Position numbers: made by a program. Below, one piece after another: positions 31,753-37,700 of a stretch of 64,000 bases of DNA (position 1 is its first letter; the number at the start of each line of letters is the position of its first letter). The stretch is taken from NCBI RefSeq assembly GCF_053078305.1, contig NZ_CP166879.1; one strand, given 5' to 3'.

Positions 31753-34700
31753 TCAGAATTAACTTAACTGTGAATCATGATGTTTTTAGCATCCTGATAA
31801 GAGCTAAAAGTTTTAACGCTACGTTGTTCGATGGTCAACGCAACGAAAAACAATTCAGATTTTCTTTATAAGAATAGCTGATATTTATTAAGTTAATATT
31901 AAGCAGTGAAATTTAGTCTATAAGATAAATGGCAAAAAAAAAGCCCGGTGCAATATACGCCGGGCCTCAATTTTATTGTTGGTTAAATCAGATTAATCCA
32001 GCCATTCAGTATGGAACACACCTTCTTTATCAATGCGCTTATAAGTATGTGCACCGAAATAGTCACGCTGTGCCTGGATCAGGTTCGCAGGCAGAACAGC
32101 GGCACGGTAGCTATCGTAATAGGCAACCGCAGCGGCGAAGGTCGGAACCGGGATACCGTTCTGTACTGCATAAGCAACGACATCACGCAGCGCCTGCTGG
32201 TAGTCATCGGCAATTTGCTTGAAGTACGGAGCCAGCAGCAGGTTAGCGATCTGTGGATTTTCGGCATAAGCATCGGTGATTTTCTGCAAGAACTGCGCAC
32301 GGATGATGCAGCCAGCACGGAAAATCTTCGCGATTTCGCCGTAGTTCAGATCCCAGTTGTACTCTTCAGACGCCGCACGCAGCTGAGAGAAGCCCTGAGC
32401 GTAAGAAACGATTTTGCCCAGATACAGAGCACGACGAACTTTTTCGATGAACTCACCTTTGTCGCCAGCTGGCTGCGCTTGCGGGCCAGAGAGAACTTTA
32501 GATGCGGCAACACGCTGCTCTTTCAGAGAAGAGATATAACGAGCAAACACAGACTCGGTAATCAGCGACAGTGGTTCGCCGAGATCCAGCGCGCTCTGGC
32601 TGGTCCATTTACCGGTACCTTTGTTTGCTGCTTCATCCAGAATCACATCAACCAGGTAGTTACCGTCTTCATCTTTTTTGGTGAAGATATCTTTGGTGAT
32701 GTCGATCAGGTAGCTGCTCAGTTCACCGTTATTCCACTCGGTAAAGGTCTGTGCCAGTTCTTCGTTAGAGAGATTCAGGCCGCCTTTCAGGAGAGAATAG
32801 GCTTCAGCAATCAGTTGCATATCACCGTATTCAATACCGTTGTGAACCATCTTCACATAATGGCCTGCGCCATCAGCACCGATATAGGTAACGCACGGTT
32901 CGCCATCTTCAGCAACGGCGGCGATTTTGGTCAGGATCGGCGCAACCAGTTCATAGGCTTCTTTCTGGCCACCAGGCATGATGGACGGCCCTTTCAGCGC
33001 CCCCTCTTCACCGCCGGAAACACCGGTACCGATGAAGTTAAAGCCCTCTGCTGAAAGCTCACGATTACGACGAATAGTGTCCTGGAAGAAGGTGTTACCA
33101 CCATCAATGATGATGTCACCTTTATCGAGATATGGTTTGAGGGAATCAATAGCAGCATCCGTGCCTGCACCTGCTTTCACCATTAACAGGATGCGACGAG
33201 GCGTTTCCAGAGATTCAACAAACTCTTTCACCGTATAGTAAGGAACCAGCTTCTTGCCTGGATTTTCGGCAATCACTTCTTCCGTCTTTTCACGGGAACG
33301 GTTGAAAATAGAGACGGTATAACCACGGCTTTCGATGTTGAGCGCAAGGTTGCGCCCCATCACTGCCATACCGACTACGCCGATCTGTTGCTTTGACATT
33401 GTTTACTCCTGTCAGGGGGTGGTCACCGCCGAGTGTGCGGCTTAAATGTGGTATAGATGTTAACTCACTCATAGAGATGGTGAATAGCATTACCTTTGCT
33501 ATACCACACTGAATGTCTCACCTTTTCCGTCATTTAAAACTTATTTATATGAAATTACTGAATTACTTGTTCAGTAACTCAAGGATAAGTTTTGTCTTTT
33601 CTTCCATCAGCGGCACATCACCGCGAGATTCCACATTCAACCGCACCACCGGTTCGGTGTTGGAGGTGCGCAGGTTAAAGCGCCAATCGGCAAAGGTCAT
33701 GCTGATGCCATCGGTGCGATCCACCGCCAGCGCCTCACGGCTAAAATGCTGTTCCACGCGGTTAATCGCCTCAACGGGTTGCGCCAGTTTGCTGTTGATC
33801 TCACCGCTTGCCGGAAACGCCGCCATCCGGTCGCGCACCAGTTCGCCCAGCGTTTTTCCTTTCAGGCACACCAGTTCGGCTACCAGCAGCCACGGGATCA
33901 TGCCGCTGTCGCAGTAAGCGAAATCACGGAAGTAATGGTGGGCGCTCATTTCGCCACCGTAGATGGCGTCCTCCTTGCGCATACGTTCTTTAATAAAGGC
34001 GTGTCCGGTTTTCGACATTACCGGGGTGCCGCCTGCGGCAGTCACCACATCAACGGTGTTCCAGGAGAGACGTGGATCGTGGATGATCTTCGCGCCGGGA
34101 TTTTTTTCGAGGAATGCTTCTGCCAGCAGACCGACAATGTAGTAGCCCTCGATAAACTGCCCTTTTTCGTCAAACAGGAAACAGCGGTCAAAATCGCCAT
34201 CAAAGGCAATGCCCATATCCGCGCCGTGTTTGATGACCGCATTACGGGTGTCGTCGCGGCATTCTGGCAGTAGCGGGTTAGGAATACCGTTGGGGAAATT
34301 GCCGTCCGGCGTGTTGTGCACTTTGATTAATTCCACGGGTGCGCCGAGGGCTTTAAAGCGGGCTTCAATGGCGTCCACTACCGGCCCCGCTGCGCCGTTC
34401 CCGGAGTTAATCACCAGCTTGAGCGGCGTGAGGTTTTTGACGTTGATATAACCGAACAGGTGATCAACGTAAGCGTCACGCAGATTGATTTGCTGATAGC
34501 GACCGCGTTTGGTTTCATCGACGGGAGGAAAGTCGTTGGCTTCTGCCAGGCGCTGGACATCGCGCAGTCCGGTATCACCGCTGATCGGGCGAGCCCCTTC
34601 GCGCACGAGTTTCATGCCGTTGTAATCCATCGGGTTATGGCTGGCGGTAACTTCGATGCCGCCATCCACGCCGAGATGGAACGTGGCGAAATAGATCTCT

Positions 34701-37700
34701 TCGGTGCCGGACATGCCAATATCCAGCACATCGACGCCCGCATCCTGTAAACCTTTCGCCAGCGCCAGTTTTAAGGTTTCGCTGGTGAGGCGGACATCAC
34801 CGCCTAACACAATGGTTTTCGGTTTGAGAAATTCGCCATAGGCGCGACCAATGCGCCACGCAATATCTTCATTCAGTTCTTCGCCTAATTTCCCGCGAAT
34901 ATCATAGGCTTTAAAGCAGGTTAATTTTTTCATATAAAAACCTTACCAATAATAAAATTATTTATGCGCAAACAATTGCATTAGTTTTGAGATTTTTCTG
35001 ATAATGATAGCAATTTTCCAATTTACATTATGGTTTTTCATAACTTCTACAATTTCCTTTGTACTTGATATCGCGTTATCAATTCTGGTACTTTCCCCAC
35101 CCAATCTCATCTTTACAAATACTTGAGGAACATAAATAACTTTAATATCATCACGTTTCAAAATCCTGACCATCTGATCATAGTCTGCAGCAATCCTATA
35201 GGATAAATCAAAATATCCATCGTCTTTATATAATTCCCTCCTCATATAGAAAGATGGATGCGGTGGTGCCCAGCCTAATGATAGCTTAGAACGTTTAAAA
35301 GGACCACTACGCCAGTATCGTTTGATTATATCAATTTGGTTTTTTTCGAAAAAAACCAAATCACCGTATACAACATCCGCTTTTGTCTCATGGAAACGGC
35401 TTACAATAGTTTCAATAATATCAGGTCTTGCTAAAAGGTCATCAGAATGAACGAATCCAATAATATCTCCCGTAGATAAATTTATACCTTTATTTAAAGC
35501 ATCATAGATACCGTTATCGCTTTCTGATAGACATTTGGTTACTCTTGTTGATACTTCGTTAATTAGTTTTAACGTATTATCTGTAGAACCACCATCAATA
35601 ATTATATACTCTATATCTTTATAGGTTTGCAACTCTATTGACTCTAAAGTATCCCTTAAAGTCTTTTCACTATTATAAGTCACTGTAATAATACTGACTT
35701 TCATTTTAACATCCAATAATAATCATAATTAAATAACGTCAGTACAGCATTACGAATAATAATGTTGCATTAGTATCCAGCATCATTTTAGATTCTAACA
35801 ACATCATCTTCATCCAAGTAGACACCTGAACGTACCTCAATAATCTCCAAAGGGATCTTTCCTGGATTCTCAATAAAATGAGGTACACCTATTGGTATAT
35901 AAGTTGATTCATTTTCAGAAACAAGAAATATTTCATCTTCATAATGGACTTTTGCTGTTCCAGAAACAACAATCCAATGCTCAGTACGATGGTAATGAAT
36001 CTGTTTAGCAGTTTTATGTCCAGGATGAATAACGACATGTTTAACCTCAAATCGAGATCCTTCCGCTATAGAGTCATGACTGCCCCATGGCCTAAATATT
36101 TCACGATGCTGCAGATATTCCGTACGGTTATTAACTTTAAGTTTTTCTACAATATTTTTTACCTGTTGAACTTTATCTTTATGCGCAACGAGAATAGCAT
36201 CTTTAGTTTCAACAACTACTAAATCTTTAACTCCTACTACACCAATTAATCTATGTTGTGAGTAAAGATAACTGTCAGAAGAATCATGAATTAATACATC
36301 TCCTCTAATTGCATTTCCACTTTTATCTTTTCTGCTAATTTCCCATAATGCAGACCAAGAACCAACATCGCTCCAGTGGGCATTTAATGGAACTACCACA
36401 GCCTCTGTTGTTTTCTCCATAACAGCGTAATCAATGGATTCTTCAGGGCAACAACTAAATGAGTCATTATCTATACGGATAAAATCAAGATCTTGTGTAG
36501 AGGACTTCAATGCTTGTTGGCATATTTTTAGTATGTCTGGTCTAAATTTATTCAACTCATCAATAAACACAGAAGCCCTAAACATGAATATTCCACTATT
36601 CCAAAGATAATCTCCATCTTCAAGATATTTTTTGGCCACATCTAGCTCAGGCTTTTCAACAAAAGCAGAAACTTTAAAACCATATTCATTTAAATTTTCT
36701 CCGGTTTTTATGTAGCCATATCCAGTTTCGGGTTTGGTTGGCACAATACCAAAAGTTACCAGCTTACCTTCCTCTGCAAATTCTTTTGCAGCCAATATTG
36801 ACGATATAAAGCGCTTTTGGTCTTGTATTTCATGATCGGCTGCTAGTACAAGCAGTATTGGATCCTCACCTGATGAAATTGCTTTAAGAGCAGCAAGCGC
36901 AACTGCGGGGGCTGTATTACGACCTATCGGCTCTAGTAAAATGCCACTATTCGCTAAATTTACATTACGCATCTGTTCTGCAACGATAAAACGATGAACT
37001 TCATTACAAATAACCAGAGCAGGACGATGTTCAACCCCTTCAAGCCTTCTTAAGGTCTCTTGTAGCATAGTCAAACGACTAGTTAACGATAGGAATTGCT
37101 TCGGATATAGTGTTCGAGAAAGTGGCCACAATCTAGTTCCAGAACCACCGGCCATTACAACAGGAAGTAGCATATAAATAACCTTCACTTAAAATAATTT
37201 TTTGTGTACTGATGAACTGAGGAATTAGCTAACAATTCGGCTATATCGAACCAATTGTAAGTACTATGTTGTAGTGTTGGATAGTTAATTTGATGTGGCA
37301 TCAAACTAATCTCATATCCGTGTACGACATAATGAGTTGAAAAACAAGTCCCAGAAAAATTGTCGCTGTAGAAATGTTCATAAATCCCAAGAAATTTTGC
37401 TTCATTAATGCTAATTTGAACACCCAATTCTTCAAAAGTAACTCTTTTGAATGCGTTCTCGAAAGACTCATCTTTAAGAATCCGTCCCCCCGGCACAAAC
37501 CAATAATTTTGTGCTGGACGATTAAGGCGCTGACCAAGCAGCGCCTTACCATCTTCGTTTCTTATAATAAGGTCTATCGAGATTAGTGGAGTATGTTCAA
37601 CTATTGATTTAAATAACTCTGTTTCTAATCTCTTGTTCAATATTAACTCCTAAATGAGTCAAGATTATTTATAAACCATTTATATGTTAATTCTAGTCCT

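Follow-up and report, generated by a model that had tools for sequence, protein, structure and literature searches.

Colanic-acid-like manB genes have reportedly been described in the O-antigen clusters of Salmonella enterica (by Jensen and Reeves in 2001, Microbiology 147:599), and the subject of the present analysis is a gene of the same class in Escherichia coli, namely the manB gene at positions 33563-34933 (minus strand) of a 64,000-nucleotide (nt) stretch of contig NZ_CP166879.1 from NCBI RefSeq assembly GCF_053078305.1, hereafter referred to as the window. This manB, which belongs to an O11 O-antigen cluster, displays every testable defining feature of the colanic-acid-like, cpsG-derived class of O-antigen manB genes. 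As judged from sequence comparison, it is very probably a chimera, in which an ancestral AT-rich O-antigen manB was replaced in register, within the E. coli lineage, by the species' own cpsG, the phosphomannomutase gene of the colanic-acid region. The O11 gene shares with S. enterica the finding of a GC-rich manB that is near-identical to the cpsG of its species and lies beside a low-GC manC, an arrangement reproduced here at S. enterica loci of the GT2-manB-gnd and group C1 types. Takeover of O-antigen manB by cpsG has thus already been published for Salmonella as well as for other E. coli; the O11 locus extends this pattern and adds no new biology.

In the O157 cluster of E. coli, manB was replaced by the colanic-acid gene according to Samuel et al. 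(2004), as that work is cited by Iguchi (2011; PMC3158064), and of all the genes of the cluster manB varies most from strain to strain within this serogroup; gene conversion was proposed (Iguchi, 2011; PMC3158064). The O157 and O11 loci are alike in that manB is >95% identical to cpsG and in that manB is variable within its cluster: the O11 cluster is 99.8% conserved, yet a patch of its manB is 2.9% diverged. Several differences are also evident. The tail of O157 manB reads KLMEKKTKALLKLLSE, its junction with cpsG-like sequence lies ~12 nt earlier than in O11, and the gene is not located beside gnd but is followed by an insertion sequence (IS) remnant and perB. Because tail, junction, and surroundings all differ, the O157 gene is best regarded as an independent chimera.

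Recombination between manB and cpsG has also been documented for E. coli B in the long-term evolution experiment (LTEE), in which it produced 7 rearrangements and in which the intervening region was deleted in 10 of 12 populations (PMC4173774), and a manB-cpsG deletion is attributed to the O14 type strain by Jensen and Reeves (2004), as relayed in PMC7685785. In common with these strains, the window contains a ~1.3-kb direct repeat pair, 96-97% identical, with the O-antigen cluster and the distal colanic-acid genes lying between its two copies. Specifically, the repeats at 33601-34933 and 55934-57265 are in direct orientation, 1.33 kb in length, 97% identical, and 22,332 bp apart. The outcomes differ: those in the LTEE and O14 were reciprocal exchanges or deletions, whereas in the window neither copy has been lost and the DNA between them is retained.

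Composition of the O11 manB gene and its identity to cpsG

The window covers the his / wzzB-ugd-gnd / O-antigen / galF-gne / colanic-acid region of E. coli, with genes in the order gnd-manB-GT2-manC...wzx-galF; manB is the final gene of the O11 cluster and adjoins gnd. The remaining O-antigen genes (GT2, manC, gmm, fcl, gmd, GT4, galE-like, GT, wzy, GT2, and wzx; 34958-46127, minus strand) are 99.7-99.8% identical over 11.5 kb to those of 65 complete E. coli genomes, in which wzx and wzy carry the RefSeq label 'O11 family'. The manB open reading frame (ORF) is intact, lacks internal stop codons, and encodes 456 amino acids that match the NCBIfam model NF011943 'phosphomannomutase CpsG' over residues 1-456 of 456 (1053.7 bits; cut-off 801). 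Its translation includes the sequences TASHNP, DGDFDR, and GEMSAHH, which, on general knowledge of the superfamily, we take to be the catalytic motifs of the phosphoserine, metal, and sugar loops, respectively. The product is predicted to be a phosphomannomutase (an alpha-D-phosphohexomutase) that converts mannose-6-phosphate to mannose-1-phosphate.

Analyses of composition and sliding GC content set manB apart from its cluster. Its GC content is 0.546 and its GC content at third codon positions (GC3) is 0.635, as compared to a GC of 0.26-0.39 and a GC3 of 0.23-0.30 in all 11 of the other O-antigen genes, including the adjacent low-GC manC (GC3 0.231). A GC3 of 0.56-0.71 is observed for the colanic-acid and his genes of the window (0.58-0.71 for the colanic-acid genes). 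A first-pass annotation, made from the sequence alone, had described manB as a gene of chromosomal-like GC content, nearly identical to cpsG, embedded in a cluster that is otherwise AT-rich, and each element of this description is borne out by the values given here and by the alignment that follows.

Within manB, the GC content is 0.55 over nt 1-1332 and 0.31 over the final 39 nt (1333-1371), a division that recurs upon alignment to the cpsG gene of the window. Nucleotides 1-1333 of manB (34933-33601) are 97.07% identical to cpsG (57265-55934), with 38 mismatches and a 1-bp gap in cpsG, and the final 38 nt differ from cpsG at 17 of 38 positions. Two segments can therefore be delineated on the minus strand: a putatively cpsG-derived body at 33601-34933 (gene nt 1-1333), and an AT-rich tail of 38 nt, stop codon included, at 33563-33600 (gene nt 1334-1371), the latter being a probable remnant of the ancestral O-antigen manB. 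The first-pass annotation had put this AT-rich end at ~45 bp; the end is present and does not match cpsG, but it is shorter than had been thought. Sequences 5' of the ATG and 3' of the stop codon are AT-rich and do not align to the flanks of cpsG, in agreement with the AT-rich character that had been ascribed to the upstream side.

The divergence that had been claimed for the other shared genes of the cluster is likewise upheld, as identity between O11 genes and their colanic-acid paralogs is 57.9% for manC/cpsB, 50.8% for gmm, 62.8% for fcl, and 69.8% for gmd. The colanic-acid genes cpsB, wcaI, gmm, fcl, and gmd (57458-62687, minus strand; GC3 0.60-0.69; 51-70% nucleotide identity) were not copied into the O-antigen cluster. 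The first-pass annotation had staked its reading upon manB being unlike the cluster in GC content and unlike cpsG at its 3' end, and both are found to be the case.

The manB tail and the species specificity of the gene body

The tail of O11 manB is in frame, is of the same length as the end of cpsG, and encodes a diverged ManB C-terminus that is homologous to those of other ManB proteins. The C-terminal tails encoded by cpsG read EARTRTLL(T/A)LLN(E/Q), and that of O11 manB is dissimilar. Syntenic clusters were found by way of homologs of the neighboring GT2 gene, and their loci were then compared. The arrangement (gmd-fcl-gmm-manC-)GT2-manB-gnd recurs on a contig of Salmonella enterica and on a chromosome of Citrobacter freundii (CP199763.1; O-antigen manB at 10777-12147 of locus L013). 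At both loci the neighboring cluster genes have a GC3 of 0.20-0.27, as compared to 0.77 for manB in Salmonella and 0.67 for manB in Citrobacter, and in both the manB tail is AT-rich (one reads EEKTQAILTLLRK) and resembles that of O11 manB.

Colanic-acid copies flanked by cpsB and wcaJ served as the reference cpsG genes of Salmonella and C. freundii, and gene bodies were compared across species over nt 40-1320. Three proteins named 'CpsG' (P0145, P0123, and P0139) were rejected as representatives of Salmonella cpsG, each being a group C1-type O-antigen manB that adjoins manC and gnd. In its body, the O-antigen manB of Salmonella shows 97.4% identity to Salmonella cpsG and 79.5-80.8% identity to the E. 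coli genes, while for E. coli O11 manB the corresponding values are 96.5-97.2% to E. coli cpsG and 80-81% to the cpsG genes of Salmonella and Citrobacter. As for the tails, those of cpsG are 84-92% identical across genera, and O-antigen manB tails share 55-68% identity among themselves and 40-58% with the tails of cpsG. The Salmonella clusters differ from E. coli O11 in the position of the 3' junction, which lies at ~nt 1309 in the Salmonella O11-like locus and ~nt 1343 in the C1-type locus versus nt 1333 in O11. Since the bodies are species-specific and the tails are of the O-antigen type, it follows that an ancestral O-antigen manB occupied this position and that its body now consists, in E. 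coli and in Salmonella, of sequence from the cpsG of the same species.

These comparisons bear on two other accounts of the origin of the gene, both of which were rejected. According to the first, the O11 module never had a manB of its own and a duplicated cpsG was recruited beside gnd, which would agree with a manB body that is indistinguishable from cpsG alleles. Such a duplication is nonetheless highly improbable, as the in-frame tail of equal length is homologous to ManB C-termini and matches the O-antigen manB genes of the syntenic Citrobacter and Salmonella loci, not cpsG, and as 10-25 nt of manB's own 5' sequence are also retained in other serogroups. Less credible still is the suggestion that manB came in with the cluster and was GC-rich from the outset, owing to a foreign donor of high GC content, the cluster having been built of modules of different origin. 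O-antigen clusters are indeed known as mosaics of modules that differ in GC content (PMC3715488), and the 5' half of manB in E. coli strain BA92 is GC-rich in spite of being 15-20% diverged. The body of O11 manB, however, shows 97% identity to E. coli cpsG, with which it has polymorphisms in common, and the Salmonella counterpart matches Salmonella cpsG instead.

Two Enterobacter examples, drawn from among the matches listed in a ManB search of genome contigs, supply the intermediate and unconverted states that such a replacement would lead one to expect. In Enterobacter sp. BIGb0383 (L016/L021), two ManB genes lie at a distance of 23 kb and form a partly converted pair, with an identity of 0.92-1.00 in the middle ~1 kb and of 0.68-0.80 at the ends. 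An Enterobacter metagenome-assembled genome (L019/L057, match 3001-4368) has an unconverted low-GC manB (GC3 0.37) that is ~60-70% identical to a resident cpsG located 11 kb away.

Shared variation of manB and cpsG among E. coli strains

The E. coli sample comprised 10 further genomes, 8 of them with both genes: three O11 genomes, one each of O6, O7, and O157, two with other cluster types, and two in which cpsG alone was present. All four of the O11 strains compared have a chimeric manB with the same junctions, and the same 3' junction, tail, and gnd spacer, the last with minor variation, are found in O11, O6, O7, BA92, and cS108a, the tails having 0-2 differences. The first 10-25 nt of manB are serogroup-specific, and in O11 the cpsG-like sequence begins at the ATG. 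Because the junctions are shared by all of the O11 strains, and by other serogroups as well, the chimeric manB predates both this strain and the sampled O11 lineages.

When 8 manB and 11 cpsG sequences were pooled (nt 40-1320), 0 fixed differences between the loci were found and 73 of the 173 variable sites were polymorphic at both. The four-gamete test was failed by 45% of informative site pairs in this same pool, and a Kst-like statistic of 0.058 was obtained for manB versus cpsG; the sample is small. As read from these alignments, the pattern is that of two loci, manB and cpsG, evolving in concert across the species.

The first-pass annotation had proposed that the incoming manB was largely overwritten by cpsG through gene conversion after acquisition of the cluster. 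At the species level this proposal is supported by the cross-species comparison of bodies and by the O-antigen-type tails, but the support does not extend to this particular strain. Conversion of manB by the strain's own cpsG, subsequent to its gain of the O11 cluster, could have drawn upon two 97%-identical copies in direct orientation 22.3 kb apart, and conversion within a genome has been proposed for O157 (Iguchi, 2011; PMC3158064). Such an event is nevertheless very unlikely and was rejected: all O11 strains examined are already chimeric with the same junctions, and 38 differences (26 of them in a private patch described below) separate the window manB from its own cpsG, no fewer than the 37-49 that separate it from the cpsG genes of other strains. 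Similarly, the mean number of manB-cpsG differences over 8 genomes is 45.6 for pairs from the same genome and 47.1 for pairs from different genomes. As manB in these 8 genomes shows no greater similarity to its own cpsG than to those of others, recent conversion inside this genome finds no support here, and the cpsG copy of this genome is, to judge from these sequences, not the recent donor of the manB body.

Somewhat less improbable, but still unlikely, is a replacement that took place once, in the distant past, and after which only allelic recombination between strains occurred, with manB forming part of a conserved gnd-side flank and taking part in no continuing exchange with cpsG. This account would accommodate the tail, junction, and spacer common to O6, O7, O11, BA92, and cS108a, the location of the cS108a manB beside gnd in a cluster without manC, and the lack of any greater similarity of manB to its own cpsG; consistent with it as well is the divergence of the galF and gnd flanks, which amounts to 2.4-4.6% between O11 strains. 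A single founder, however, cannot yield 73 shared polymorphisms together with 0 fixed differences, and the different junction and tail of O157 point to at least one independent event.

Comparison of the window with the O11 strains FORC 064 and MB06232 reveals where within the cluster variation is concentrated. From the wzx-galF spacer to nt 548 of manB, only 0-5 sites per gene differ (0.1-0.2%), with 1 difference in manB nt 1-548, and 0 differences are found in the 224 nt composed of manB nt 1311-1371 and the adjoining 163-nt manB-gnd spacer (33400-33562, minus strand), which travels with the tail. Between these segments, nt 549-1310 of manB (33624-34385, minus strand) differ at 21-23 of 762 sites (2.9%; binomial P ~1e-6). 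This private patch contains 26 of the 38 differences between the window manB and its own cpsG (nt 31-1333), and it bears the signature of an internal replacement tract. The corresponding patch of the FORC 064 type is present at >=99% identity in only 20 genomes, as compared to 65 with the O11 cluster. In an O11 cluster that is otherwise clonal, manB thus stands out as the variable gene.

Outside of the cluster, galF (46497-47393) differs from that of other O11 strains at 41 of 897 sites and gnd (31993-33399) at 34-64 of 1407 sites, a divergence of 2.4-4.6% versus 0.1-0.2% in the O11 block. The block that was transferred seemingly extends from within the wzx-galF spacer to the gnd-proximal end of the manB-gnd spacer. 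A scan for promoters and terminators across 33350-35100 returned nothing above shuffled expectation.

Two other E. coli manB genes are of individual interest. In strain cS108a, a tail-bearing, cpsG-like manB (locus L006, 30183-31553) adjoins gnd in a cluster without an annotated manC, the content of which includes wecB, wecC, glycosyltransferases, and a heparinase-like gene; this manB looks like a relic left at the gnd flank after cluster replacement. In strain BA92 (locus L003, 29482-30852), the 5' 600 nt of manB are GC-rich and 15-20% diverged from all E. coli cpsG genes, and the 3' half and tail are typical of E. coli, so that the gene is a chimera with a cpsG-like gene of another taxon, joined near nt 600.

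Proposed course of the replacement and its significance

Replacement of the O11 manB body by cpsG sequence of the species probably proceeded as follows. An ancestral AT-rich manB would have stood at the gnd end of a gmd-fcl-gmm-manC-GT2-manB module, and homologous, non-reciprocal recombination would have placed E. coli cpsG sequence over it in register, from the start codon to nt 1333, the limit of alignable homology, leaving only the 38-nt AT-rich tail. Once a cpsG-like tract was present in manB, further tracts could have extended it toward both ends of the gene. Thereafter the manB body and cpsG would have constituted one pool of sequence variants, in which short tracts pass between the loci by ectopic conversion and between strains by allelic recombination at the O-antigen hotspot, and such movement of tracts would yield mosaic alleles, for example that with the private patch at nt 549-1310. 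RecA-dependent exchange requires near-identical stretches, and manC, gmm, fcl, and gmd presumably escaped because, at 51-70% identity, they are too diverged for it. The manB enzyme would still supply mannose-1-phosphate for the GDP-mannose and GDP-fucose of the O11 unit. We infer the mechanism, direction, and timing of this recombination from the observed composition, junctions, species-specific bodies, shared polymorphism, and patch; by the same token, the term gene conversion is an interpretation of sequence patterns to which allelic exchange between strains also contributes.

Several observations weigh against this account. The detailed comparison covers only 20 E. coli sequences, and the window manB is, as described above, about as distant from its own cpsG as from those of other strains. 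A search of 5,426 complete genomes yielded no donor for the private patch, the best match being 98.0% identical. Finally, the body of the Citrobacter manB (GC3 0.67) is only 85% identical to the sampled C. freundii cpsG, for which reason the species-specific rule is confirmed in two of three genera.

The resident colanic-acid cpsG (55896-57266, minus strand), which represents the probable source type of the manB body, has a 1-bp deletion at 56995-56996 (GATGGCGGC to GATGCGGC) that, as alignment reveals, splits the gene into two ORFs. In strain GPEC996, the closest genome, cpsG is intact and otherwise identical; the deletion could be a genuine frameshift private to this genome or could have arisen by sequencing error, the context being GGCG. 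The colanic-acid gmd (61567-62687, minus strand) also contains a frameshifting 1-bp deletion, at ~61929 (ACCGGCG to ACCGCG). In both cases a G is lost from GGCG, and both genes have intact O11 paralogs. The shared context suggests compression or a sequencing artifact, and real decay driven by redundancy is a possible alternative. Were both deletions real, the cell would depend on O11 manB and gmd as its sole functional enzymes for the supply of GDP-mannose and GDP-fucose, manB would serve as a backup able to rescue colanic-acid synthesis or to repair cpsG by conversion, and the private patch would represent a recent exchange, ectopic or between strains, with an unsampled donor; this combination is rather doubtful. 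The cpsB-cpsG spacer (57267-57457) contains palindromes resembling repetitive extragenic palindrome (REP)/bacterial interspersed mosaic element (BIME) sequences (GCCTGATAAGACGCG...CGCATCAGGC), and variable REP copies in this spacer have been noted (Iguchi, 2011; PMC3158064). In E. coli EH08-18-36 (locus L010), the first 235-240 nt of cpsG recur at 26314-26553 as a partial duplicate, which carries a pseudogene annotation and lies ~170 nt 5' of the full-length colanic-acid cpsG.

The takeover of manB by cpsG sequence has practical consequences. Because of it, the name that PGAP/RefSeq gives to manB of the O-antigen cluster is 'colanic acid biosynthesis phosphomannomutase CpsG' in all of the O11 genomes inspected (L001, L002, L004, and L005), and manB is the least reliable gene of the cluster for O-typing or for cluster phylogeny. 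Recombination between the manB and cpsG repeats would remove the O11 cluster along with galF, gne, and the genes from wcaM to wcaJ. More generally, the O11 locus provides an example of a laterally acquired, compositionally foreign gene cluster that has been partly taken over by a resident paralog.

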